The translations under genes and the position numbers were made by a program. From the NCBI GenBank assembly GCA_963662465.1, contig OY759599.1, positions 2,272,001 to 2,336,000 of the forward strand: 64,000 bases of DNA. Reading direction: 5' to 3'. A model generated the notes under the pieces. The model was not told the DNA's origin. It worked only from the letters and a program-made list of their open reading frames with translations, and ran no database searches. Positions 8,780 through 23,323 of the stretch are shown in pieces. The stretch's first letter is position 1. Every line of letters starts with the position of its first letter. The DNA comes from Desulfatiglandales bacterium (GTDB lineage Bacteria > Desulfobacterota > DSM-4660 > Desulfatiglandales > Desulfatiglandaceae).

Positions 8780-11700
8780 ATGTTTCCCATGAAATTCGAT
8801 CACAAAACCCTCGAAACTCTCCCTGTCCCGGATGCCGGACGGATCGCGGATGTCGTCAAGCTCCTCAAGGCCATTGCCATGGGACGGGTCATGGCCTATT
8901 TCAAATCCAAACGGGGAACGGATCCCGCCCTGACGGCCGGACTGGCCGACCATTTTGTCATCCGCCGACTGGAAGATGAGGAAAACCGCATTCCCATCGT
9001 AAGCCTCCTGTCCCGAAAAGAGAAGACCTGGATGATTGATATTCATGAACGGATCTTCGATTACCTGGCCTTCGTAATCCCCAGCGATCCTGAATCCAGA
9101 ATTGGCGGGCACTCCGGTGAAGAGGGAAAAATCCTGGCTTTTATCGAATTCCTACTAAGGCATCAAGTGGAACACATGCTTTATCCGGAAGAATCCGAGA
9201 GTGCGGTAATCCATTCCGATCTGGTCTTTGCCATGGACCGACGCAGGGAGGACCCCACCTATTACGCCATGCTCCGGAAGGTTCTGGACGATGAGATGAA
9301 CGGGCTCGAAGGAAAGCTGTATCAGAACATGTTTGAATCGGAAGAACAGGGCAGGCCTCACAAATATCTCATTACCCGGATGCTGACCTCTTTCATCGAC
9401 AGCCTGGTGGATATTCCGGAGTCGCTCCTTCACGCCGCGTTTCCCTTTTTAGACACCGATCTCAAGACAAGACTCATGATTGAATATTACCGGAGAAGTC
9501 GGGAAGTATCCTATTCCCTGATGCAACGGGCCTTTTACCTCCGGGAAGTACTCCGATTTTTCGCTCTCGCCATCGCACGCAATGAGAAAGAAGCCGAGAA
9601 GGTCTTTGATATGTTCAAAGATCGATGGGGCCTGCTTTACCTCTTCCATGAACTGGATCTCCCGGAAACCATTCTGGAGGAAAAAGAGCCCAATGAAATC
9701 TTCTCTTATTTCAGGAAGAGCCTGGAAGAACTCTCCCTTGACGACACGTCTTTTCGCCTGACACCCCGACCTCCGAAAAAGACGGCGCCCGACTCGTCCG
9801 AGCCGCCCGCCGCCACAAAAAGCCTCAAGGACCGCATTGAAGAGGCCCGGAATGATCCGTCATTTCCCCGCCAGGCGCTGGATGTGATCGACAAGAACAA
9901 GATCAGCGCCGTCGGCCACAGTGGCCCCAAGTACACGGAACTGATTGAAGTTCTTCTTGCCGTTCCGTGGGGCCGTGTTCAAAAAATATCGGTTGATCCC
10001 GAAGCCTTTGAGGAGGGTCTCAACAGGACGCACTATGGCCTGGCACGGCCCAAAGAGCTCGTCTGTGATTTTTTTGCCAACCTGATCTGGCGTTATCAGA
10101 ACTTCAACGGGATAGAAGATGTCAAGCACCGCAGCGGAAGCGCCTTCCTCTTTGTGGGTCCCCCCGGCGTCGGCAAGACCTCCCTGGCAATCTCCATTGC
10201 CGAAAACCTCGGGGTTCCCTACCACAAAATCTCCCTGGGCGGAATGCGCGAAGAATCGGCCCTCCGGGGCCACGGGTTCACCTTCGAAGGTTCCAAACCC
10301 GGAGCCATCGTTCAGGGTCTGATCAAAATGGGCATCATGAACGGGATGTTTATTCTCGATGAGGCGGACAAGACCGAGCCCGCAACCGTTTCAACGCTCC
10401 TGGAGATTTTGGACCCGGAGCAGAATCATCTTTTTCACGACAAGTTCACCATGACGACCGTGGACATTGACCTCTCCAACTGCCACTTTATCCTTACAGC
10501 CAATACCCTGGAAACGGTGCCGCCGCCGGTACTCAACCGCTGCGAAGTGGTTCTCCTGGATCGCTACAGCATTGAAGAAAAAATCGCCATCGGAAGCCAA
10601 TATCTGATCGGGCGGGTACGAAAACGACATAAAATCACCAAAGAGACCATCGCCATCAACCCCGACCATGAAGTTGACCTTCTGCGATACCTGATCAAAA
10701 CATACACCCATGAACCGGGGGTAAGGGAGCTGGAACGGATCATCCGGACCCTTTTCCTGAGAATCTTTCGAAAAGAAATCCTGAGCAAGGGACAGTCATC
10801 GGTTCAAATCACACGGGAGAAGATCAAGCAGTATCTGGAGACGCCCACGCCGCCAAGAGGGATCTCCGAGGAAGACCGTGTGGGGGAAATATTGGCCCTG
10901 GGGGTAAATGTGGCGTTGGGCATCGGGTCCGTGATTCCCATACAGGCCACTCCGATCTGGCTTGAAAGAAGCAACGAGGGCCGGCACGGCGCCTATCTGA
11001 GCATGGTCCACGCCACCGGAAATATTGAGAAAATCATGGATGAAAGCCGAAAGGTGGCCACCACCGCCATCTTTCACTGTGCCGATGCATTGGGGATTGA
11101 CCTAAAGCAGGCGGGAACGCCGATCCACCTTCATTTCATGGGGAGTTCTACCCGGAAAGACGGGCCTTCCGCCGGAGGCGCCATCGCACTGGCCCTGGCA
11201 TCGGCCCTCTCCGGCCGCTATATCCGGAGGGATGTGGCTATGACCGGCGAGATCGATACCAAAGGCCGCATCACCGCCGTGGGCGGTCTCGACGTTAAAA
11301 TGGAAACAGCCTGCGATGCGGGATGCAAAACCATGATCATCCCCATGGAAACGCTCCATGATGAGAAAGGCATCAAACGCCTGCCCCAGGCCCTGAAGAA
11401 GGAGCTTCAGATCCTGACCTACGAATCCTGGAAAGGGGTACATGAACCATTTGACTACCGCCGTCACGTCCTTCAGGTCGTTGCGGTAGACCATCTGGTA
11501 CAGGCAGCTGATGTGGCTTTTGTAGACCGGAACGAATTGACGACGTTGACAAGCGCCTTGACGCCCCATGCCGCGTCAATAGCCGAAACCCTTGAGGCCA
11601 CACAAAGGGAACAGCGACAGGGTTTACGCGTTCTATACCTGAAAGATCCTAAAGAACTGCAAATGGAGGGGATGGAGGGTCCGCTCACAGGCGACGATTC

Positions 11701-12313
11701 CTGCGTCTTTCTGTTCCCGGCGGGAATGGAGAAAACAGTCCGGGAAAAATTCCCCCATTTCAAGGGCCGCATTCTATTCCGCCATATGGACCGCTCCCCG
11801 GGGAAGGTTACAGCCATTATAGGGGATATCCTGAAAAAATCGGCAACAACGTCCCATAAGCCGATTTCCGTCTCCGTCATCGCCCCGTTCTTCTTCTTGC
11901 GGAAGGAAGGGATTACGCCCCAGGCTCTCTTTCCGGATGGAACACAGGGAAACCTGACGCTTTTTGCCAACAACTACACCGTTCAGGACATCAAAATCAA
12001 GAGGTGCAAAGCGGCCCTGAATCGCGTCTTCAGCCACCTTTCCAAAGAGCCCCCCGCACAATTGGAAGCCTGCCCTTTTCTGACAATGCACCACGGCATC
12101 CATGTGGTGGATATTTCGTTCATTCCCGAAAAATATCGACTCGATGTGAAGCGTGCGGAAGATATCCTTAACCGATGCCTGCGGGAGTGGCTCAACACGG
12201 TTGGGACAGGGATTAAACCCTCACGCAATCAACCCATGAACCATCAGTTTTCGGACAATGGGCGGAACCATGAGGGCGCCCAGAACCCCGAAGACGACGC
12301 CGCAGGCAGATGA
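8780..12313 (+). CDS. Atypical Lon-family (S16) ATP-dependent protease with long non-canonical N- and C-terminal regions
   Basis: AAA+ core (THYGL, GPPGVGKTS, LGGM, ILDEADK, LLEILDPEQN..F.D, GVRELER) and protease dyad region (KDGPSAG, MTGEI...G....VGGL..K). Confidence 0.88.
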   Translation: MFPMKFDHKTLETLPVPDAGRIADVVKLLKAIAMGRVMAYFKSKRGTDPALTAGLADHFVIRRLEDEENRIPIVSLLSRKEKTWMIDIHERIFDYLAFVIPSDPESRIGGHSGEEGKILAFIEFLLRHQVEHMLYPEESESAVIHSDLVFAMDRRREDPTYYAMLRKVLDDEMNGLEGKLYQNMFESEEQGRPHKYLITRMLTSFIDSLVDIPESLLHAAFPFLDTDLKTRLMIEYYRRSREVSYSLMQRAFYLREVLRFFALAIARNEKEAEKVFDMFKDRWGLLYLFHELDLPETILEEKEPNEIFSYFRKSLEELSLDDTSFRLTPRPPKKTAPDSSEPPAATKSLKDRIEEARNDPSFPRQALDVIDKNKISAVGHSGPKYTELIEVLLAVPWGRVQKISVDPEAFEEGLNRTHYGLARPKELVCDFFANLIWRYQNFNGIEDVKHRSGSAFLFVGPPGVGKTSLAISIAENLGVPYHKISLGGMREESALRGHGFTFEGSKPGAIVQGLIKMGIMNGMFILDEADKTEPATVSTLLEILDPEQNHLFHDKFTMTTVDIDLSNCHFILTANTLETVPPPVLNRCEVVLLDRYSIEEKIAIGSQYLIGRVRKRHKITKETIAINPDHEVDLLRYLIKTYTHEPGVRELERIIRTLFLRIFRKEILSKGQSSVQITREKIKQYLETPTPPRGISEEDRVGEILALGVNVALGIGSVIPIQATPIWLERSNEGRHGAYLSMVHATGNIEKIMDESRKVATTAIFHCADALGIDLKQAGTPIHLHFMGSSTRKDGPSAGGAIALALASALSGRYIRRDVAMTGEIDTKGRITAVGGLDVKMETACDAGCKTMIIPMETLHDEKGIKRLPQALKKELQILTYESWKGVHEPFDYRRHVLQVVAVDHLVQAADVAFVDRNELTTLTSALTPHAASIAETLEATQREQRQGLRVLYLKDPKELQMEGMEGPLTGDDSCVFLFPAGMEKTVREKFPHFKGRILFRHMDRSPGKVTAIIGDILKKSATTSHKPISVSVIAPFFFLRKEGITPQALFPDGTQGNLTLFANNYTVQDIKIKRCKAALNRVFSHLSKEPPAQLEACPFLTMHHGIHVVDISFIPEKYRLDVKRAEDILNRCLREWLNTVGTGIKPSRNQPMNHQFSDNGRNHEGAQNPEDDAAGR

Positions 12314-12741
12314 AATTAAAGCGTGCTGCAAGATGAGGTCCCAATCCATTCCGATGACCCATTCCACTGCAATAATGGTCAGAAAACGGCTTGCGGCGCC
12401 CAGAGCGCCGACGATGGCGCAAGCCACGTAACTACCTGCCAATCCCGAAGAAAAAAGGCCCACCAGGTCAACAATGAGGCCGGGGACCACAAACTTCAAA
12501 ATAATCAACGGACCGCCCTTGCCCATCCCCAACAAGGTGCAGAGAAGCCCCGCCAGGAGTCCCACCAGTGTAGCGGCGCCCAGCCTGGGAACGCAACCCC
12601 TTCCCAGGATCAGGAAAAACATGGTAAAAAACATGGCATGCCCGGGAATATTTAAGTGCAATCTAAATACGCCCCGTGTAATGACAATAAAGCAGGCACA
12701 GAATGCCAGACAAAGCGCTTCCTGAAGGGTGAATTTTTTCA
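12221..12741 (-). CDS. ECF transporter S (substrate-specific) component, substrate unknown
   Basis: Hydrophobic ~173-aa protein (MKKFTLQE...LHLNIPGH...) directly downstream of EcfT and EcfA genes; start at 12741 is inferred. Confidence 0.72.
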
Positions 12742-13413
12742 TGGACGCGGTCGCTCCCCAAACCCCCTGGCCTCGGCGGATAACGCCGCTGACCTTGAGG
12801 TTTTTAACGCCCTCACCATGAGAGGGATCATCAAGCACTGAAACAGGTCTTTCCAGTGAATGGGATTCCAGGCATAGCGAATTCCCACGGGCGCCCCACG
12901 AAGTTGTTGGGCCATATAGATCTCCCGGGTTTCACGGGCAAAGAAGGGAACAAACCGCAAACTGGTAAAGAGAAGAAACGACAATCGTTCCGACATGACC
13001 TTTTTCAGACTTCCCATCATCCGACTCCCTTCGGTCGTTCGAAGGAGGACCGTTCCCGGCAAAAAAAGAAGCAGAATCTGGCAACCGGTCCGCAATCCCG
13101 GCCAGAGACCTTCCGCAAACCCGTATTTAATCAGATACAGCAGCAGGATGACCGCCATCTGGACCAGGAAGAAGCGAATATCCCGCCACAGATTACGAAA
13201 GCCCAGGTGGGCTGAAAGATAATAGGCCAGGTTGACAACCAGAAGTCCCGCCAGCATCCAGGGCTCCCGGGCGGCAATAGCGCCGGCTGAAAAAGCAACG
13301 GCCAGAATAATTTTCCACCCCGCGCCCAGCCTGTGGATGGGGGAGTTCCCGGCACAATACTGAAAGGCGCCTCCCCTGAAACCGCCATTTTCAATTCGTT
13401 CCCATTTCTTCAA
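12739..13413 (-). CDS. ECF transporter T component (EcfT/CbiQ family)
   Basis: SPIHRL...WK start, LRFVP, and the two conserved Arg motifs AQQLRG and SAEARGF. Confidence 0.9.
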   Translation of the reverse strand: MKKWERIENGGFRGGAFQYCAGNSPIHRLGAGWKIILAVAFSAGAIAAREPWMLAGLLVVNLAYYLSAHLGFRNLWRDIRFFLVQMAVILLLYLIKYGFAEGLWPGLRTGCQILLLFLPGTVLLRTTEGSRMMGSLKKVMSERLSFLLFTSLRFVPFFARETREIYMAQQLRGAPVGIRYAWNPIHWKDLFQCLMIPLMVRALKTSRSAALSAEARGFGERPRP

Positions 13414-14773
13414 TGCGCCCCTCCTTTAGAAAAAGCGTTTCATCGGCCCATGCGCCATCGGGCAGGAATTCGTGAGACGCGATTACCACCGTTGTCCCCC
13501 GCGATTTACGCAAACGGGACAGGATCTTTAAAATGTTTTTTCTCCGGGCAAAATCAAGCCCCGCAAAAGGTTCATCCAGCATGAGGATTTGAGGTTGCGG
13601 CGCCATCACCGATGCCAGGGCCACCCGGTGCTGCTCCCCGAAACTGAGGGTCAGCGGTGATCGGTCTTTCAAATGGGCCACATGGCAGATTTCAAGGGCT
13701 TGGGCGACACGGGTCTTGATCTCCCGGGCTGAAACCCCCATCCGCTTAAGGGAAAACCCCACTTCATCCCGAACCGTGTCTTCAAAAAGCTGCCGTTCAG
13801 GGTTCTGGAAAAGATACCCTATTTTCCCCAGGAGCCTATCCATTCTGGGACGTCCCATTCCGTCCATTTGAATGTCGCCGGCCTCGGGCCGAATGAGCCC
13901 TGTCATGCATTTCAACAGCGTGGATTTCCCCACACCATTTTGACCATGAATGAACACCAGGCGGCCCGCAAACAAACTCAGGTTGAGGTCGTCAAACAAC
14001 AATCGCCCGTTACCACCCGAGAGACAAAGCCCCTTCACGGAGAGCAGACGCTTCACGGGTTCCCTTGCCTCGGCCGCCATCCCCCCGTGACGCTTCGGGG
14101 GAGAAAGAATAAATTCAGACGGAATTTCACGATCAATGCGCTGAATACGTCCCCGGTCCATGAAAACAAAACGATCCGCCGGCTGTTCGAAAGGGCCCAG
14201 TTCATGATCGGCAATCAGCAGGGTATGCCCCGCCGCTTTCAGACGGGTTAAAAGAGCCGTCAACCGACGCTTTCCGTCGGCATCCAGTTGGGCCGTGGGT
14301 TCATCCAGGAGCAAAATTTTCGGGGAGGTGGAGAGTACCGATGCAATGGCCAGGCGATGGGTCTGCCCGGCGGAGAGGGCTTCCACATTTCGCGTTTCAA
14401 AACCGGTCAAGGAAACCGCTTCCAGGCTTTTTCCGACTGCCGTCTCAATTTCCCGAGGACTGAACCCCCGGTTTTGGGGCCCAAAGGCCACTTCATCCGC
14501 CACCGTGGTGCAGAGGAGATGGCTTTCCGCATTTTGAAACACCAGCCCGGTGGGACAGGGTGCCCCCCCCGCAACTCGAAGGGTCCCTTTCTCTATTCCA
14601 CCTTTCAAAAGCCCCTTGAGCGCCAGAAAAAGCGTACTCTTTCCACAGCCTGATGGCCCCGTAAAACAGATACATTCGCCGGACGGTACGGACAAAGACA
14701 GATGGGATAAGGCCCAGGCCTCTCGACCTGGATACCGGTAAGCATAATCCCTTAGCTCAACAACGGGGTTCAT
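13391..14773 (-). CDS. ECF transporter fused double ATPase (EcfA-A')
   Basis: Two ABC domains: GPSGCGKST/LSAGQ/LLLDEPT and GQNGVGKST/LSFGE/LMLDEPF; FQNPE.Q.F..TV.DEV.F ECF signature. Confidence 0.92.
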   Translation of the reverse strand: MNPVVELRDYAYRYPGREAWALSHLSLSVPSGECICFTGPSGCGKSTLFLALKGLLKGGIEKGTLRVAGGAPCPTGLVFQNAESHLLCTTVADEVAFGPQNRGFSPREIETAVGKSLEAVSLTGFETRNVEALSAGQTHRLAIASVLSTSPKILLLDEPTAQLDADGKRRLTALLTRLKAAGHTLLIADHELGPFEQPADRFVFMDRGRIQRIDREIPSEFILSPPKRHGGMAAEAREPVKRLLSVKGLCLSGGNGRLLFDDLNLSLFAGRLVFIHGQNGVGKSTLLKCMTGLIRPEAGDIQMDGMGRPRMDRLLGKIGYLFQNPERQLFEDTVRDEVGFSLKRMGVSAREIKTRVAQALEICHVAHLKDRSPLTLSFGEQHRVALASVMAPQPQILMLDEPFAGLDFARRKNILKILSRLRKSRGTTVVIASHEFLPDGAWADETLFLKEGRIEEMGTN

Positions 14774-14810
14774 AGGGGGCGAACGTCGGTCTCAACAAAA
14801 GATTCAGGCA

Positions 14811-15530
14811 TTATCCTTTTTTCCGCTTTCCGCACAGGGATTCCCAAAGGCCTTCACCCTTTTTATGCACGGCGAAAACGGCCCGGTTGCCCCAGAGCCT
14901 GGGCCGCAACCAGTTCAGTGTATGAACCCGATCGTCGGGAGCCGGGGCCATCCCGTCCCGATCCAGGGAAACCACCGTAATATGGGCCTGTTCCAATTGG
15001 GACACCGCCACATCCTCGGAAAAATCCCGAAGCCCGCCAAATTCGATAAACCTGCCGTTCCACCCGGAGGCGGTCAATCCCACGGCGGCGGCTGCCCCGA
15101 TGATGCCGTCGTTGGTTCCCCCATGCCCGGAAAGGTGAAATCCAGACGCCGCAACAAGGGCATCTTTCTGTGTAACCACTTTCCGGGTGCAAAGAAGACC
15201 GAAATCAAGCAGAACCGACAAATCGGTTTCCCCGTTTGGCGCCACGCATACGCCCGGATCGCTTCCCACAAGGGAATGCCGTTCCACGTGCGCCACGGCC
15301 CTTTCAATCAATTCCCCCAGCATAGCCTGATCCGGCATGTCCACCACCATGCAGGCGGAGCTGTTATGGGACGTGTAGGGGATATCGTCATGCAACAACA
15401 GTTGCTGACGCACAACACCCCACATGCAGCAGCCTTCCGGCAGCTCTTTTTCAAACCACCGGACCAATTTTCCGGTACCGCGGCCGGCATTTATATTGTC
15501 GGTATCGTCAAAACCGATATAGACGCGCAT
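14811..15530 (-). CDS. DDTD-motif protein related to the N-terminal catalytic region of TiaS / methanogenesis marker 11; function unknown
   Basis: MRVYIGFDDTD...GTGK, RQQL....IPYTSHNSSAC, SDPGVC and GGTNDGIIGA.AA.GL resemble TiaS IGIDDTD / IP.KT.GN / GRG.IGALAA. No OB-fold or Zn-ribbon C-terminus. Confidence 0.65.
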   Translation of the reverse strand: MRVYIGFDDTDNINAGRGTGKLVRWFEKELPEGCCMWGVVRQQLLLHDDIPYTSHNSSACMVVDMPDQAMLGELIERAVAHVERHSLVGSDPGVCVAPNGETDLSVLLDFGLLCTRKVVTQKDALVAASGFHLSGHGGTNDGIIGAAAAVGLTASGWNGRFIEFGGLRDFSEDVAVSQLEQAHITVVSLDRDGMAPAPDDRVHTLNWLRPRLWGNRAVFAVHKKGEGLWESLCGKRKKG

Positions 15531-15543
15531 GGGTTGACTCCAG

Positions 15544-15566
15544 GTTTTAAGTTTTAAGTTTTAAGT
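15544..15566. repeat. Heptamer tandem repeat (GTTTTAA)x3
   Basis: gttttaa gttttaa gttttaa gt read directly. Confidence 0.8.
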
Positions 15567-15630
15567 CTTGCTACCAATGATTTTCTTGTTTTTTGAAACA
15601 GCGTTTCAGGGAATAGACACTAACCGCTTT

Positions 15631-17652
15631 CTAAAAATAAACCGCCACGCCCCCGTAAATGATCCGCCCGGCGGTCGGGAACCCGTAACTTTCTTCATAA
15701 TTTTTGTCAAAGAGGTTGTCGGCCCCCACATAAAGATCCAGGAGACCGTTAAGCAACGTCTGGTCGAATTTCAGATTGACAATGGCGAAATTGTTCAACT
15801 CCGCTTTCTCATAGGGTTCGGACCGAGAGTAGTAGACCTGGTCCGCATTATAAATGACATTCGCATAGGCGGAAAAACCGAAGTAGAAGGTATACTTTCC
15901 TTCCAGCGTCAACTTGTGCCGGGGCCGGTATTGCAGCTCGTCCCTTCCACTGTTGGGGGACTTGTCTTCCGTATCCATGAAGGTATATCCCAGACGCAGC
16001 ATGAGTCGCTCAATAAACCGGGTTTCGGCAGTGACCTCAAACCCCTGAAACCGATACTTGTCGTAGTTCTGAAAATAGTCCTCGTTATTTGGTTTTTCAA
16101 TGTAGTCATCCACATCGGACAGAAATCCGTTAAGGGCAACACGGCTGTTGAGGGGCAGGGCCTGCTCCACACCCAGTTCATAGTTATAGGAGGTTTCCGG
16201 AACCAGATCCGGATTTCCTTCTCCAACGGAGTAGAGTTGACGAAGGGACGCAAAGCGGATTTTCTTTGCATATGCCCCTCGCACCCGAGTGCCCTTCACA
16301 ATATCGTAATAGGCGCCCGCCATATAACTCCCTTTGTTTTCGTTGGCGCCCGATTCTTCCTTGTTCTGCCAGTAGTGACCATATCCCAACACCAGCCCCA
16401 GACGATCAAAAAGGGTGATTTCATACTCCAGGGAAGCGCTGTAAACCCAGAGACTCCAGGCGTTATCGAAATTCCTGAACTCGTAATCCTTTCCGACTTT
16501 CTCATCCCGAATCTTGCCTTTGGAATCATATTCCTGCTTCTGTGCATCGAGGGCCAAAGTAAAGGATCCCGCGGATGTCAAATCGAGCGCCGTCTGGATG
16601 GTTCCCCCCCAGTTCTTGGATGTGCCGTCCTCAAAGTAGGTGCCCTTTGTCAGCATGGAATTATAGTTGTCATCATCGTACCGGGTCCGGTCCTCATCAT
16701 ACTCGTTGTAATAGGCCCAGCCCCGAATGTCCACAGGCCCCGGCAAATCATAGCTGGTTGAAAACTGGGCGTTAAACCCTTCGAAATGATTGACCCGTTC
16801 ATATTTCGGATTATTGGCAAAATCGTCGGGATCGGTCTTGGTGCCTTGCTTGGTACTGGGGGGAATGCCGTAATTGCCGTTTACAAAACTGGCCACGAGT
16901 CCCAGGTCCCAGTCTTTGGTGGGGGAATATCCAATGTTGCCGAAGACGTTGTTTCTTCGATTGTCGCTGTTTTCCCGTTCTCCGCCTCCCTGCAGGGACG
17001 TGGCTTGAAAGTCGTTGGCCAGAGGATAGTCCTTCCGGGCCGACATACTACCACTCACAAAGAAGTCCGCTCCTTTGGCGGCGCCGCCCGCGTTGAATCG
17101 TCCCAGACGTTCCGACCCTTCCCCGGTCTCTCCGGAAGCCATGCCGTGAATGCCCTCTTTGCCCTTCTTGGTGATGATATTGATGACCCCGCCCATCCCC
17201 CCCTGGCCGTAGAGGACCGAATTGGCGCCGTAACTCACCTTTATTTTGGCAATGTTTTCCGTGGGAATAATGGAAGGATCAAATTGACCGTCGTAGGTTG
17301 AATTGAGCGGCACACCATCGAGCAAAAGCAACACATGACGAGATCTGAAACCGCGGATATCCACACGGGGAGTGCCTTCCGCGCCGGTCCGAATCTCCAC
17401 GCCCGGCAGCAGTTGAAGAGCCTGATCCAGGGTCCTGGCATCCTTGTTTTGAATCTCCTCAGCCGTCACCTCGCGAACAGTGCCGGCGGTTTCCACCACG
17501 TCCTGCCTGGCGGAGACCACAACCTCTCCCAGCGTATAAACGCCTGCATTCTTTTCGTCTGTTTCCGCCACACCCAAGGCCGGGAACAGCCATAAGGCCG
17601 TACCAGCAACCAAAGATAACCTCATCCAACACCACGTCGTTCTCTTTTTCAT
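15631..17652 (-). CDS. TonB-dependent outer-membrane receptor (BtuB/CirA-like)
   Basis: Signal peptide, TonB box LGEVVVSA, plug motifs IRGF/LLLLDGVP/LYG.GGMGGVINIITK, NPDL.PE, NLFDK.Y and C-terminal Phe. Confidence 0.95.
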   Translation of the reverse strand: MKKRTTWCWMRLSLVAGTALWLFPALGVAETDEKNAGVYTLGEVVVSARQDVVETAGTVREVTAEEIQNKDARTLDQALQLLPGVEIRTGAEGTPRVDIRGFRSRHVLLLLDGVPLNSTYDGQFDPSIIPTENIAKIKVSYGANSVLYGQGGMGGVINIITKKGKEGIHGMASGETGEGSERLGRFNAGGAAKGADFFVSGSMSARKDYPLANDFQATSLQGGGERENSDNRRNNVFGNIGYSPTKDWDLGLVASFVNGNYGIPPSTKQGTKTDPDDFANNPKYERVNHFEGFNAQFSTSYDLPGPVDIRGWAYYNEYDEDRTRYDDDNYNSMLTKGTYFEDGTSKNWGGTIQTALDLTSAGSFTLALDAQKQEYDSKGKIRDEKVGKDYEFRNFDNAWSLWVYSASLEYEITLFDRLGLVLGYGHYWQNKEESGANENKGSYMAGAYYDIVKGTRVRGAYAKKIRFASLRQLYSVGEGNPDLVPETSYNYELGVEQALPLNSRVALNGFLSDVDDYIEKPNNEDYFQNYDKYRFQGFEVTAETRFIERLMLRLGYTFMDTEDKSPNSGRDELQYRPRHKLTLEGKYTFYFGFSAYANVIYNADQVYYSRSEPYEKAELNNFAIVNLKFDQTLLNGLLDLYVGADNLFDKNYEESYGFPTAGRIIYGGVAVYF

Positions 17653-17959
17653 TGCACTGCTACCTTTCCGCTATCGTTATGATTAAAATTACACCCCCGC
17701 TCCTTCAGGAGCCTACCCAATGGAGGCCCGATAATATGCTTTTGAGTTTGATTTTGTCAACTGAATAGGGGGTCGGAGTTGACTTATAGAATATACAAAC
17801 CAATATAGGCGTATAGGGGTCTTAACCGAGTTTGATCAACTGTCGAATTAAGAACCATTTTAGGCTCTCAAAACGACTATTGAGCAACGCAGCATAAAAA
17901 TAATCTTTTCTATTGAATCGCTAACGTGTAGGATATTCCCACTGGTCATTGCATTTTTT

Positions 17960-17997: not shown

Positions 17998-18606
17998 GTG
18001 ACAGACATCGCGACCGACATGACGGATCACCATCTGATCGTCCAATTCAAGGAAGGGTCCATGGAAGCCATGGAAGCCATCGTGGATCGGTATGAAAATC
18101 AAATCTTCACCTTCGGTCTCAAGATGTGCGGTCAACTCCAGGATGCCGAGGATATTACACAGGACACTTTTCTGAATGCCTTCAAGTATTTAAACAGTTT
18201 CAGAGAAGAGACCAAATTGAAAAACTGGTTGTTCAAAATTGCCGCCACGGCATGCATCCGAAAACGGCGTAAGAAAAAATGCGAGCCGGATCGGGAACTA
18301 TCCCTGGAATCCTTTACAAACGAGAACGGCGCACCCGAAACATATGATATCCCCGATTGGTCCGATAACCCGTCAGATAAAGTGTTGCAGGCGGAAATGA
18401 AACAGGTCATCAATGATGCCATCAAGACGCTCCCGCACAAATACAAACTGGTATTCAACCTCCGGGACATTCAAGGGTTCAGCACCAAAGAAACCGCCGA
18501 AATCCTTGAAATCAGTATTGAATCGGTAAAAACCCGGCTCCATCGAGCGAGACTGGCCCTGAGGGAAAAAATATCCCACTCATACAGCGAAGGAAAAATC
18601 TCATGA
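17998..18606 (+). CDS. ECF RNA polymerase sigma factor
   Basis: DAEDITQDTF, WLFKIA (region 2) and LP..Y..VF.LRD.QG.S..E.A.IL.IS..SVKTRLHRAR (region 4). Confidence 0.93.
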   Translation: MTDIATDMTDHHLIVQFKEGSMEAMEAIVDRYENQIFTFGLKMCGQLQDAEDITQDTFLNAFKYLNSFREETKLKNWLFKIAATACIRKRRKKKCEPDRELSLESFTNENGAPETYDIPDWSDNPSDKVLQAEMKQVINDAIKTLPHKYKLVFNLRDIQGFSTKETAEILEISIESVKTRLHRARLALREKISHSYSEGKIS

Positions 18607-18863
18607 AGGAGGCGTGCAAAAAAAACTTCGAAAGAATTTCCGAATACCTGGATGGAGAACTCAAACCAAACGTCTGCCAACAGATCGAAAACCATCTCAA
18701 AACATGCCCGGAATGCAGGTCATGCGTTGATGCGCTGAAAAAAACCGTCGACCTCTGTAAAAAAAGCACTCGGGAAGAGATACCCCAGGATATGCGAAAT
18801 CGCCTCAGAAACAAACTGAGAGAGTGTTTCGGGAAGGAAGAACCGAACCCCCGCGCAGAATAA
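18603..18863 (+). CDS. Soluble zinc-binding anti-sigma factor (zf-HC2/ZAS)
   Basis: C...ISEYLDGEL...H.K.C..C motif; ATGA overlap with the sigma gene; no transmembrane segment. Confidence 0.9.
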   Translation: MKEACKKNFERISEYLDGELKPNVCQQIENHLKTCPECRSCVDALKKTVDLCKKSTREEIPQDMRNRLRNKLRECFGKEEPNPRAE

Positions 18864-19117: not shown

Positions 19118-21020
19118 ATAGGGGTAGGAAAGAGCCTCTTGGCTCTCCCCTCCCTCCGAACCGTGCATGCGGTTCTCCCGCACACGGCTCTCCGGTCGAT
19201 AGTTTCCTCATCGGGATCGGCACGCTGCTAACCGGGCCTCATGCATAGTGAAAAGCCCGATTTTCGCGAAGTAGGCATTCGGCCAGCGGCGGTGGGCTTC
19301 AAGGCTTTTGCCCCAGCCCTTGCGTTTGTTACGACGTAATAATACGGCGCGTAAGCGTCGGCGGACAAACTTATCCACCGCCGCAAACTCAGTGCGGTAG
19401 GCGTGTTTGAAGTAACCAAACCAGCCTTCGAGCATGGGGTTCAGATCATCAATGATGCTTTCCATACTTCCGCTACGTTTGCGCCGGGTCTCTTCCCGGA
19501 TTTTATCACGAAGGGCTTTACGGCTTTTACTGCGTATCCAGCGCTTTCCTGCCTCAAACCGGTATCCCAGGAATTCAAATCCCTGACCCTTTTGTCGACA
19601 GTCGCCAAGATGCGTCTTGTCCGGGTGTAAGCTCAGGTCATTAGCCTGTACCCACTCCCGTACCTTTTGCAAAGCATTCTCCGCTTCCGTTTGACTGCGG
19701 CTGAGGATAACAAAGTCGTCCGCGTAACGCACCATCCGCATACCTGATTCCGCGATCAGGCTGTCAAGAGGATGCAGGTAAATATTCGCAAGCAAGGGGC
19801 TGACTACCGCCCCTTGTGGCGAACCACCCGTCGGTGTCCATCTTTCCAAGCCGTCCATCACGTCCTGTTTCAGGAACATTTGAATCAGATTGAGCAATTT
19901 GCCGTCGCTGATGCGCATTTCGACTTGTTGCATCAGCTTATCGTGCGGAATCGTATCAAAGTAACTTTTCAGGTCGGCGTCCAGTATGAAGGTGTAGCCT
20001 TCCTTAATAAGCGCGTCTACTTCTCGCAACGCGTCCTTGCAACCTCTTTGCGGCCTGAAGCCGTAACTCATCGGCAGAAATTCATGCTCGAATATGGGCT
20101 CCATAACCATTTTAACCGCTGCCTGCACTACCCGGTCTTTGACCGTGGGTATCCCCAGCGGGCGTTGTTTGCCGTCGCTTTTCGGAATGTATACCCGTTT
20201 TACCGCTTCCGGTCGGTACGTTCCCGCTTTCAAGGTTTCATGCAGTTCGGCAAGGTATTTCTCCGCCTGCTCCTTAAAGCGCTTTATGCTGATACGGTCT
20301 ATCCCTGCCGCTCCTTTATTGGCTTTGACACGTCCCCAAGCCGCTTCCAGCGTCGACAAGGCGAACACCTTATCCATCAAACTGTACCATTTACCACCTT
20401 TCACCCCGTTACCCAGGGCTGCCAACATACGTTCCGTCCACACCGATGCTTCCACCCAATCCCATCGGGTTTCTGCCTCGCGTTTAGTTGTTTCCAACAC
20501 TGCCGAGACTGCTTGATTTAGCTGCATCTATATGACCTTTCCGTATCTATCTTCCTATCCTCCTTCCCTCGGCACGGTTTTGCTATCCGCGCTTTTCACA
20601 ACCCGGTATCCGACGCAGGCGGCGGGTACTGGTCTCACGCCGTAAGCCTTGTTAGCAGGACCGTTCTGTCGCTACGGTACTATGAGGACTCTGACTCCTG
20701 CCTCCTGTCACCCCAAGAGACAGGTCTCCCTGCTTATCTCGCTTTACCTTCCAGTCATTCCGACCCCAAACATACCATGCCGTCAAACCATCGCTTTAAC
20801 CGCCATTACAGCGTGGTCTGTGAGTTTCAGGCTTCACCATGGAACGGTAGGCTCGCCACCACATGACACCGAATCGGGTTCGTCATCCTACGGACTGACT
20901 TTTCGCCTCCGGTTGCTCTCCACCCCGCCTCGCGGCGACGCAGTTACCTTCGGCTACGGAGCTATGGCATACTCCGGTACGGACTTTCACCGCACTGATA
21001 AAGCGCCTTCACAGGCGCAC
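19118..21020 (-). mobile_element. Full-length group II intron (about 1903 nt, AGC-triad domain V, endonuclease-minus maturase)
   Basis: 5' end GTGCG at 21020 (minus strand); domain V GAGCCGTGTGCGGGAGAACCGCATGCACGGTTC at ~19158-19190; domain VI ends CCTACCCCTAT at 19118; candidate EBS1 CGTTCC (20841-20846) is complementary to the last 6 exon nucleotides GGAACG. Confidence 0.9.
19208..20527 (-). CDS. ltrA: Group II intron reverse transcriptase/maturase
   Basis: GAAGID, RPLGIPTVKDRVVQ, SYGFRP, DADLKSYFD, PQG..VSPLLANIYL, YADD and FLGY motifs, then maturase X domain (GW.GYF); no HNH domain. Confidence 0.96.
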   Translation of the reverse strand: MQLNQAVSAVLETTKREAETRWDWVEASVWTERMLAALGNGVKGGKWYSLMDKVFALSTLEAAWGRVKANKGAAGIDRISIKRFKEQAEKYLAELHETLKAGTYRPEAVKRVYIPKSDGKQRPLGIPTVKDRVVQAAVKMVMEPIFEHEFLPMSYGFRPQRGCKDALREVDALIKEGYTFILDADLKSYFDTIPHDKLMQQVEMRISDGKLLNLIQMFLKQDVMDGLERWTPTGGSPQGAVVSPLLANIYLHPLDSLIAESGMRMVRYADDFVILSRSQTEAENALQKVREWVQANDLSLHPDKTHLGDCRQKGQGFEFLGYRFEAGKRWIRSKSRKALRDKIREETRRKRSGSMESIIDDLNPMLEGWFGYFKHAYRTEFAAVDKFVRRRLRAVLLRRNKRKGWGKSLEAHRRWPNAYFAKIGLFTMHEARLAACRSR

Positions 21021-21179: not shown

Positions 21180-21539
21180 TTAAGCCCATTGATTATCAAT
21201 CAGGCTTTCATATGGGATGCCCATCCCGTGGTGCAACCTGAAAATCTGTTTCAGGGAAAGGGTTCTCTTGCGGCTTAAGACATCGCTAACCCTGCTTCTG
21301 GGGCCAAGGAACGTTTCCAGATCTTTGCGTTTCAAATCCAGCTGTTCCATTCTGAACAAAATGGCGTCAACCGGATCGGATGGGGGCATGGGATAATGTT
21401 TGTCTTCGTATGCCTCCACGAGTGTCATCAACACATCCAATTCGTCGCCATCAATTGTACCCATTTCAGATCCCCAAAGGTTTTCAATGCGTTTCAGCGC
21501 TTCACGATATGATTTGTCATCCCGAATCGGTTTAATCAT
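21180..21539 (-). CDS. higA: HigA-family antitoxin (XRE HTH)
   Basis: IKPIR....Y..AL, LVEAYE..HYP...DPV.AI.FRMEQ, SRVS.VL..KR.LSL; overlaps the toxin stop codon. Confidence 0.9.
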   Translation of the reverse strand: MIKPIRDDKSYREALKRIENLWGSEMGTIDGDELDVLMTLVEAYEDKHYPMPPSDPVDAILFRMEQLDLKRKDLETFLGPRSRVSDVLSRKRTLSLKQIFRLHHGMGIPYESLIDNQWA

Positions 21540-21844
21540 GTCTGTTGCACCTCCTTTACGTTTATGGCATCGTATTCATCATAGGTGCCGACAAACTTAA
21601 TGTACATGGCTTGCCTCGGGTAATCCATTGCACATACAATGCGATAGCCATTTCCTTTCACATTAAAAACGGCCCTGTCTTTTTCTACAAAAGAGACGTG
21701 GCGGAATGTGTTCTTCACATCCTGAGGCGTTGCCCAATCCTTTTTGACGCAAAAGTGGTACCACTCATTAAGCCAGGGCTTTGACTTCTCATTGCCTGCT
21801 TTTTCCCAGTATTGTCTAAGCCTGCTTTTTGCGATGATTCTCAT
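21536..21844 (-). CDS. higB: HigB-family mRNA interferase toxin
   Basis: MRIIAKS.L..YW, W.TPQDVK..F, VFNVKGN.YR.V, KFVGT..EYD.I. Confidence 0.92.
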   Translation of the reverse strand: MRIIAKSRLRQYWEKAGNEKSKPWLNEWYHFCVKKDWATPQDVKNTFRHVSFVEKDRAVFNVKGNGYRIVCAMDYPRQAMYIKFVGTYDEYDAINVKEVQQT

Positions 21845-22577: not shown

Positions 22578-22606
22578 TTGACGTTGATCTCTGATTGCGA
22601 TATAGT
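22578..22606 (+). promoter_or_regulatory. sigma70 promoter TTGACG-N17-TATAGT for the second higBA
   Basis: Canonical 17-nt spacing; -10 ends 6 nt before the ATG at 22613. Confidence 0.7.
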
Positions 22607-22612
22607 TGCGGC

Positions 22613-22900
22613 ATGCATGTGATAACACGAAGACGGTTGCTGGAATTCAGCGAGAAATATTCGGATGCCGGTGAGCCTTTAGACCGCTGGTATCGAATTG
22701 TAAAACATACTGATTTTGCATCATTCACAGAGGTACGCAATACCTTTCCACAAGCGGATCGAGTGGGAAGATTAGTTGTTTTCGATATTGGCGGGAATAA
22801 GTATAGACTAATTACCTACATCCTTTATGCTCGGAAAAGAATTTATATCAGGGATATCTTGACCCATCCTGAATACGATAAAGGAAAATGGAAGGAATAA
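22613..22900 (+). CDS. higB: HigB-family toxin (second copy)
   Basis: MHVITRRRL.EF, L..WY, VFDIGGNKYRLI, ILTH.EYDKGKWK. Confidence 0.92.
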   Translation: MHVITRRRLLEFSEKYSDAGEPLDRWYRIVKHTDFASFTEVRNTFPQADRVGRLVVFDIGGNKYRLITYILYARKRIYIRDILTHPEYDKGKWKE

Positions 22901-22903
22901 CCA

Positions 22904-23323
22904 ATGATTGCATTGGAACAAGAATTAAATGAAACCGTCAGAGTGTGGCCGGTGGCGTCAAAAGTTGTGTCGACCATCCGTACAAAAACCGATTACAATA
23001 AAATGGTCAATCTTTTGGATGTACTGATCGATTCCGTGAGTGAAAAATCAGACCCGGTCAAAGAATCATTGATTGATATACTGGGAACCTTGGTCAAGGA
23101 TTATGAGGATCGAAATATTCCAGAACCGGAAGGTGATCTAATCGGAAGTCTGAAGTATTTGATGGCTGAGCATGGGCTACAACAAAGGGATCTAAAGGAA
23201 ATTGGCAGTCAAGGCGTTGTATCGGAAATCTTAAACGGAAAACGAAAACTGAATATTAGACAAATCAAAGCATTGAGCAATCGGTTCCATGTGTCGCCTG
23301 CTGTCTTTATTGGGGAAGAGTAA
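22904..23323 (+). CDS. higA: HigA-family antitoxin (second copy)
   Basis: LV.DYE, L.YLM.EHGL.Q.DL.EIGSQGVVSEIL.GKR.LN.RQI.AL..RF.VSPAVF. Confidence 0.92.
   Translation: MIALEQELNETVRVWPVASKVVSTIRTKTDYNKMVNLLDVLIDSVSEKSDPVKESLIDILGTLVKDYEDRNIPEPEGDLIGSLKYLMAEHGLQQRDLKEIGSQGVVSEILNGKRKLNIRQIKALSNRFHVSPAVFIGEE

Follow-up and report, generated by a model that had tools for sequence, protein, structure and literature searches.

What might a bacterium take up when a TonB-dependent receptor (TBDR), an energy-coupling factor (ECF) transporter and a soluble enzyme of kinase-like fold are encoded together, and what might the enzyme do to the cargo? The question is raised by an operon of Desulfatiglandales bacterium (assembly GCA_963662465.1, contig OY759599.1), in the stretch from position 2,272,001 to 2,336,000, whose 64,000 nucleotides are called the window here. 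A sequence-only reading had proposed a cofactor import-and-modification system and left the substrate class unnamed; gene neighbourhoods and a shared promoter element point to molybdenum and tungsten (Mo/W). The operon is real, conserved and uncharacterised, combining a known architecture (TonB receptor, ECF transporter, cytoplasmic ATP enzyme) with unnamed families of substrate-binding (S) component and enzyme. A link of the operon and its enzyme family to Mo/W supply is very likely; scavenging of organic Mo/W by the operon is the leading reading, though slightly less likely than not, and its first candidate cargo is the pterin cofactor or the dephosphorylated core of that cofactor. The features are:

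17735..17764, minus strand: promoter/operator element, located with a matrix from five orthologous promoters of other genomes
15631..17652, minus strand: TonB-dependent outer-membrane receptor, 673 aa (PF07715, E 6.1e-26; PF00593, E 1.3e-28)
14811..15530, minus strand: stand-alone protein of the TiaS kinase fold, here the DDTD protein, 239 aa (AlphaFold2 model with Foldseek and VIA-align)
13391..14773, minus strand: fused EcfA-A' ATPase (EcfAA'), 460 aa (two ABC_tran stretches; top NCBIfam rows are ECF ATPase models)
12739..13413, minus strand: EcfT coupling protein, 224 aa from a TTG start (PF02361, CbiQ, E 3.3e-13)
12221..12742, minus strand: ECF S component of an uncurated family, 173 aa (six-helix model and Foldseek)

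The five genes are co-directional and closely spaced, as had been read from the sequence, and all lie on the minus strand where that reading placed them, with intergenic distances of 100, 37, -23 and -4 nt in operon order from the receptor to the S gene. The same five-gene set was found again in other genomes, and the arrangement is therefore not due to chance. Pfam and NCBIfam matches and motifs agree with the earlier identification of a receptor, a fused EcfAA', EcfT and an S component with an LHLNIPGH motif; for the last of these the identity stands and the start moves from GTG 12838 to, most likely, ATG 12742, because the resulting 173 aa are the form on record and close homologs span 173 to 184 aa. 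Plug and barrel domains are both present in the receptor, and the genome encodes a TonB system, to judge from four TonB_C genes at other sites. All 25 NCBIfam matches listed for the receptor, those to named-substrate models included, scored below their cut-offs (for example, 129 against 599.7 for the B12 receptor). EcfAA' carries two Walker A, two signature and two Walker B motifs and reaches 315.4 bits against TIGR04520 (cut-off 315), and EcfT has coupling motifs Q-L-R-G at 168 and E-A-R-G at 214. With a six-helix S component, EcfT and two ATPase domains within one operon, the transporter has the make-up of a Group I ECF transporter. As in the earlier reading, no riboswitch was recognised upstream of the operon, Rfam returning none at the gathering score and none at E up to 5, and no TPP, cobalamin, Moco or other riboswitch was found in the window or in seven related loci.

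The DDTD protein starts with IGFDDTD at residues 5-11, and its peak 19-residue hydropathy of 0.96 indicates the absence of a signal or membrane helix, in keeping with its initial description as a 239-aa protein without signal peptide that bears an IGxDDTD motif. Its AlphaFold2 model (pLDDT 95.6) has a clear structural match to TiaS alone (Foldseek 4rvz, E 3.5e-10); VIA-align places it on 3amt with Z 21.2 and rmsd 1.9 over 148 aligned residues, the next unrelated row standing at Z 7.1, and the family profile finds TiaS at E 2e-16. The suspected relationship to TiaS is thus borne out, as is the lack of the TiaS tRNA-binding domains, since the match covers residues 1-158 and stops there. The C-terminal domain (160-239, ~80 residues) gave no fold match in whole-model searches, and a new fold is not claimed for it. 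Among 88 diverse full-length homologs D8, T10, T19, N56 and G145 are invariant, D9 and D11 are each retained in 87, and R41, Q43, T53, R160 and R209 are near-invariant as well. TiaS presumably uses the residues matching D8, D9 and D11 for Mg-ATP, and we take it to be phosphorylated on Thr18, which T19 matches if a one-residue loop insertion is allowed. The family-specific invariant polar residues round the active site (R41, H/Q42, Q43, T53, H55, N56, R160 and R209) look like a small-molecule pocket, and it is reasonably probable that the enzyme performs a kinase-type step on a small molecule. The gene is single-copy in this genome and belongs to a family of 2,627 proteins at 90% clustering (819 at 50%), several of them labelled TiaS by their source. 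Its distribution is patchy, with carriers among 11 of 41 relatives and 24 of 301 genomes of the phylum; the samples of Pseudomonadota (4/401, centre included) and Bacteroidota (1/351, centre only) hold too few carriers for a presence/absence comparison with moaC.

Six membrane helices are also seen in the model of the S component (pLDDT 90.3); every top-ranked Foldseek row for it is an ECF S component, the best being 5edl (TM 0.72, E 1.5e-3), presumably YkoE, and the nearest folds among these rows are binders of heterocyclic vitamins. Neither Pfam nor NCBIfam yields a family for the window protein at E 0.1, which places the protein outside the curated families, as the proposal of an uncharacterised system had supposed; in the close set of 32 homologs, nine match PF09819 (YkoE/ABC_cobalt) weakly (best E 1.2e-6) and three match PF09605 (MptD/Trep_Strep) weakly. 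A loop of the form R-x-x-L-x-x-P-G-H, LHLNIPGH in the window, is conserved across several phyla (G34 in 79, H35 in 71 and R27 in 59 of 80 homologs). The S gene is single-copy in the 8.16-Mb genome. With a profile of close homologs, S genes were found adjoining DDTD genes in loci resembling Bacteroidota, Chloroflexota, Actinomycetota and Gammaproteobacteria; DDTD homologs co-occur with the S family and with TBDR genes in distant phyla. Strong S matches occur in 7 of the 301 genomes of the phylum, all seven among the 24 with a DDTD gene and six within a few kb of it. Weak matches occur in three of the 301 that lack DDTD, two of which were fetched: one, from a small genome, has S fused to EcfT (L217:3629-4750), with wtpABC on one side and two MoSto-like (molybdenum storage) genes on the other, and the second lies directly before two MoSto-like genes. 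Two genomes, G422 and G043, have an S gene and no EcfT that we could find; in G422 the DDTD gene directly adjoins S all the same, which fits a trapping role.

The genes around DDTD point to the substrate class. Three sets of loci were mapped: 80 best-hit loci from genomes, 80 from metagenomes with a distant member as seed and, in an even sample of the phylum, 20 of 22 further carriers, a contig-end fragment and a weak match being excluded. Neighbourhood counts refer to loci spanning at least 8 kb (71 best-hit, 35 metagenome, 18 even-sample), and the Mo/W core set comprised TupA, ModA, WtpA, MoSto-like proteins, MOT1, ModE, regulators joining a helix-turn-helix to a periplasmic-binding-protein domain (HTH-PBP), TOBE regulators, MoeA, MoaA, MoaC and MogA. 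The references were drawn from the first locus set with own-locus matches excluded, and kin and a few duplicate loci in these counts are not independent. A core gene lies within 8 kb of DDTD in 54 of the 71 best-hit loci, 13 of the 18 even-sample loci and 10 of the 35 distant metagenome loci, and the same references find one in 14 of 488 control windows of this genome. Three contexts recur: oxyanion ABC importers with a MoSto-beta homolog, a TBDR with the S family, and FecCD-type chelate importers. In the first, tupABC, wtpABC or modABC accompanies a 75-aa gene and the MoSto-beta homolog (E 1e-69 to 2ogx_B); the 75-aa gene, which has no assigned family, is next after DDTD in 40 of 81 loci. Of the 71 best-hit loci, 43 contain a MoSto-like gene, 16 an S gene and three both, and in L033 and L035 full TBDR-ECF-DDTD operons continue directly into tupABC and MoSto genes. 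FecCD and periplasmic-binding-protein chelate importers stand in place of the ECF transporter in L179 and the haloarchaeal L173, and by look in L201, L202 and L204. A FastTree reconstruction of 139 labelled proteins (42 rows without either context label and five duplicates were left out) nests the window clade of seven importer-linked proteins in a well-supported clade of 73, 53 of them storage-linked; the context label requires 10 changes on this tree, at least five forced by its starred branches. This nesting and the repeated switches indicate that one enzyme serves both settings. The earlier proposal is partly supported and needs widening on one point: as the enzyme is found at least as often beside Mo-storage and tungstate ABC genes without TBDR or ECF genes, it is not the dedicated part of one importer.

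Several arrangements in these loci are worth recording separately. A lone MoSto-beta-like gene with the conserved 75-aa gene occurs in more than 40 loci (types L033:15374-16201 and L056:10744-10968) and may encode a Mo/W storage protein that forms homo-oligomers and has a small partner. Runs of secreted DNRLRE-domain protein and metallophosphoesterase genes stand immediately before DDTD, the 75-aa gene and MoSto in L019, L046, L091, L203 and L216; these proteins could capture or dephosphorylate cargo outside the cell. Six actinomycetotal loci (L040, L069, L074, L076, L085 and L089) encode HTH-PBP, a cell-wall-binding protein, a PF00174-like membrane protein, S, an arylsulfotransferase-like protein, a MotA-like protein, DUF2149 and DDTD. 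On a haloarchaeal plasmid, a DDTD homolog missing from the record's gene table (L173:9950-10705) is divergent from the FecCD-type ABC importer.

The promoter connects the operon with tungstate uptake. The element at 17735..17764 consists of a -35 hexamer TTGACA, a conserved spacer word of the ACTCAAAA type and the beginning of a -10 box, and the matrix trained on the orthologous promoters spans 30 positions. Across this genome (G000) it ranks a site at 7576333 first (27.9), the window site second (24.6) and insertion-sequence ends next (20.8); only two sites in the 8.16 Mb score above background, the operon promoter and a wtpABC divergon. The first-ranked site lies between an HTH-PBP regulator with wtpABC and a divergent second TBDR operon, and the WtpA encoded there passes both cut-offs. 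The regulator has the architecture (HTH_17 plus PBP) described for TaoR (PMC11980592). The second TBDR operon (G000:C1:7576446-7581794; L174:10447-15795) encodes a CcsA-like membrane protein, another membrane protein, the TBDR and an exported PF00174 fusion; the fusion partner is a tetrapyrrole methylase domain, for which a signal peptide is odd. In G009 the element is again present at the divergon, with exbB/tonB genes and the same TBDR following it; in G019 it precedes the second TBDR operon. A Gibbs search for an HTH-PBP operator gave no motif and converged on coding sequence. The DDTD-S-TBDR operons of distant loci often begin with a ModE-like gene; all eight tested match TIGR00637 at E 1.4e-16 or better, with scores below its cut-off. 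A ModE-type palindrome lies upstream in three of the seven such operons with upstream DNA, against 0.02 expected per region by a pattern partly derived from those very sites; the L158 palindrome is an exact match to RTTATGT-N8-RCATAAY, the published ModE consensus (PMC12327845). Two side observations concern these sites: in G010 the second TBDR operon adjoins a CbiM-like operon instead, and insertion-sequence ends present in at least 15 copies in G000 (for example, C1:6891319) carry an outward-reading TTGACA element that scores just under the operon promoter.

A pterin is suggested by exported domains in related loci. Of 186 loci, 19 encode a sulfite-oxidase-like (PF00174-related) exported domain within 8 kb, and 15 of the 19 belong to the 83 loci that have an S gene. 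Some versions of the S-family operon include an extracellular domain of this pterin-binding type. The profile of the small exported domain matches a triple PF00174 protein at E 1.3e-7, and the reverse profile matches a member at E 1.2e-5; at L095:9336-14384 the triple PF00174 protein and a PF00174-TupA fusion share a locus with DDTD, S and wtpAB. The co-regulated second TBDR operon likewise encodes a PF00174 domain (gene G000 7580037-7581794, E 1.5e-10) by protein-level scan, which we prefer to a genome-level PF00174 search that found nothing in this genome. The domain of the small, 148-aa lipoprotein, whose PF00174 similarity runs through weak transitive profile links, has no cysteine in 10 aligned members, and proteins of sulfite-oxidase-like fold that lack the cysteine, such as PruR, bind pterins (PMC13259868). 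The tentative likeness to PruR is that of a small exported domain without the Mo-ligating cysteine; the difference is that the domain is present in some of the related loci but absent from this operon, and is linked to importers, not to diguanylate cyclases.

To our knowledge, every described prokaryotic Mo/W importer takes the free oxyanion via ModABC, TupABC, WtpABC or MOT-type carriers. Free molybdate or tungstate would require neither a TonB receptor nor a vitamin-type S component, so a larger cargo is expected, and a route through TonB and ECF components implies a scarce, organic or complexed form; the cargo class is probably new. Established are the components with their folds, the linkage among them and the Mo/W setting; from these we infer the steps of transport and catalysis. 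The receptor would take an organic Mo/W species into the periplasm, most likely the molybdenum or tungsten cofactor (Moco or W-co), or a dephosphorylated or oxidised pyranopterin, from dead cells. The S component may bind this cargo via the R-x-x-L-x-x-PGH loop, and EcfT and EcfAA' would topple it and release the cargo to the cytoplasm. TiaS-type chemistry converts ATP to AMP and PPi and then transfers a phosphoryl group to a ring oxygen or a threonine, and vitamin kinases trap imported cargo by phosphorylation. The DDTD protein would phosphorylate the cargo at its TiaS-type ATP site, trapping it and returning it to cofactor assembly, and the same reaction could recycle the cofactor of turned-over enzymes where the gene adjoins tungstate ABC and Mo-storage genes. 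A pterin as cargo is slightly less likely than not; the full scheme is more tentative than that. In it, the Mo/W-pterin cofactor or its dephosphorylated pyranopterin would enter through the receptor and a new ECF S family for dedicated bacterial salvage, and the TiaS-fold enzyme would be a previously unknown pterin kinase or repair enzyme.

A number of results weigh against pterin salvage. The window operon itself contains no Mo/W gene and no PF00174-like gene, S-bearing loci have a core gene within 8 kb in just 9/16, 8/27 and 1/4 cases in the locus sets, and DDTD in the even phylum sample accompanies MoSto-like genes (11/18) more than S (4/18). The promoter element overlaps a strong sigma-70 promoter (match 11/12), does not precede the second TBDR operon in G010 or G004, and scores at least 12 before none of 32 other HTH-PBP genes, so it is not a general HTH-PBP site. 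The small lipoprotein of related loci has no direct Pfam or PDB match and is weakly placed by an Atlas score of 0.81, a lead only, and an hhalign probability of 21%; PruR has a pocket considered too small for Moco, which it probably cannot accommodate (PMC13259868). The carriers tested make the cofactor: all 15 examined for moaC have it, as do all five examined for moeA, and moaA, moaC and moeA matches are present in this genome. Cofactor auxotrophy of carriers accordingly finds no support, no auxotroph having been found among the 15. Finally, Arg140 of TiaS, which we take to be an ATP ligand, is not retained in the DDTD protein.

The closest competitor, which we consider rather unlikely, is that a pterin-free Mo/W complex is imported (a metallophore chelate, thiomolybdate or thiotungstate, or a polyoxometalate) and that DDTD phosphorylates a metal-oxo or ligand oxygen, freeing the metal from its complex or from a MoSto cage. 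It fits the storage loci better than pterin salvage does: a MoSto-beta homolog adjoins DDTD in 43/71 and 11/18 loci, the window clade is nested among MoSto-context proteins with its forced context switches, some loci have FecCD chelate importers instead of ECF genes, and the carriers tested all make their own pterin. It fits the pterin-fold neighbours worse, leaving the exported PF00174-like domains unexplained; no metallophore synthesis genes recur in the loci, and S components of this fold bind organic vitamins and are not known to bind oxo-clusters. The TupABC, ModABC and WtpABC importers and MoSto share the loci, and WtpABC shares the promoter element in this genome, yet those systems handle the free oxyanion and have no TonB receptor or ECF S component. 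An ordinary vitamin importer of the YkoE/ABC_cobalt S superfamily (for a thiamine precursor, a corrinoid or similar), with the Mo/W context belonging to DDTD alone, would account for the weak PF09819 and PF09605 matches, the best fold and the many S loci without a Mo/W gene within 8 kb. We hold it improbable, given the missing TPP, cobalamin and other riboswitches, S matches without DDTD that still sit in wtp/mos operons, and the ModE boxes and promoter element common to the wtpABC divergon. Group I vitamin importers (5edl; ThiT, RibU, PanT) likewise have a six-helix S, a two-motif EcfT, a fused ATPase and an operon of their own; here, unlike those, S falls below all curated cut-offs, no riboswitch is present, the transporter is coupled to a TonB receptor in a diderm, and in some genomes (G422, G043) no EcfT was found for S.

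Improbable to a similar degree is a DDTD protein that leaves the cargo alone and regulates Mo/W homeostasis as a protein kinase or an ATP sensor, for instance by acting on the 75-aa neighbour, MoSto or the transporter. The invariant threonine matching TiaS Thr18, the shifts of the gene between importer and storage contexts and the frequent 75-aa gene behind it are consistent with such a role, and a title in the reference list of PMC6313347 calls TiaS a 'dual protein and RNA kinase'; against it, the active-site polar residues resemble a small-molecule pocket, and the protein has no sensor or DNA-binding domain. That DDTD modifies tRNA as a bacterial TiaS, the name given to many homologs by automatic annotation, is very improbable. 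It shares with TiaS (3amt, 4rvz, 3u02; NF040849; PF22641) the N-terminal kinase-domain (TCKD) fold over residues 1-158, in which the acidic motif, the loop threonine, R41 and N56 align, and several homologs are so named by their source. It has none of the other, tRNA-binding domains of TiaS and an 80-residue C-terminal domain of its own, 239 aa against about 420, and scores 21.2 bits against a cut-off of 600; it is bacterial, patchy (24/301 in the phylum) and found in Mo/W loci where no translation genes recur, and its host has TilS above cut-off. Mmp11 (TIGR03280) shares the same kinase-like domain through a weak match (E 0.0038, profile positions 134-283), but the DDTD protein reaches 16.4 bits against a cut-off of 255.8 and lacks the first 133 positions, and the host is no methanogen.

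Modules of TBDR, carrier and trapping kinase are known for vitamins, such as TBDR-PnuT-thiamine pyrophosphokinase, which also has an outer receptor, an inner carrier and a cytoplasmic ATP enzyme in one operon; its carrier and enzyme folds are unrelated to those described here, where regulation is probably tied to Mo/W. The hosts are anaerobes rich in Mo/W enzymes from sulfidic habitats with scarce oxyanion, and this genome has six AOR-family, ~20 DMSO-reductase-type and ~20 xanthine-oxidase-type matches. If Mo/W-pterin salvage is correct, Moco and W-co would be exchanged community metabolites like B12, the TiaS kinase fold would have its first small-molecule function, and a function would be assigned to a family of more than 2,600 proteins currently misnamed TiaS. 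The enzyme is soluble and well folded and, with the small binding protein, directly assayable. According to a 2026 review, the passage of pterins across bacterial membranes is unexplained (PMC13259868). Searches of the open full-text literature gave no paper on an operon of this kind or on TiaS-fold proteins of bacteria in Mo/W loci; subscription journals and supplements lie outside that scope, and TunR/TaoR regulon papers may list the genes as hypotheticals.

Other features of the window can be noted briefly. A leader hairpin at 17693-17712 was dropped as an operon element, having no conservation in the leaders of relatives. Two metatranscriptome runs of one study yielded short contigs 85-100% alike over parts of the operon, a small share with no DNA control and not used as expression evidence. 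A Lon-type protease of 1177 aa with long additional N- and C-terminal parts (8780-12313) overlaps the convergent S gene by 93 nt at its 3' end, an arrangement also present in G010. Divergent from the operon is a pair of genes for an extracytoplasmic-function sigma factor and a zinc-finger anti-sigma factor (17998-18863), retained in G010, followed by a group II intron (19118-20527; Rfam RF00029, 62.4 bits) with a 439-aa reverse-transcriptase-like open reading frame. Two small gene pairs at 21180-21844 and 22595-23323 resemble, by eye, HigB/HigA toxin-antitoxin modules.

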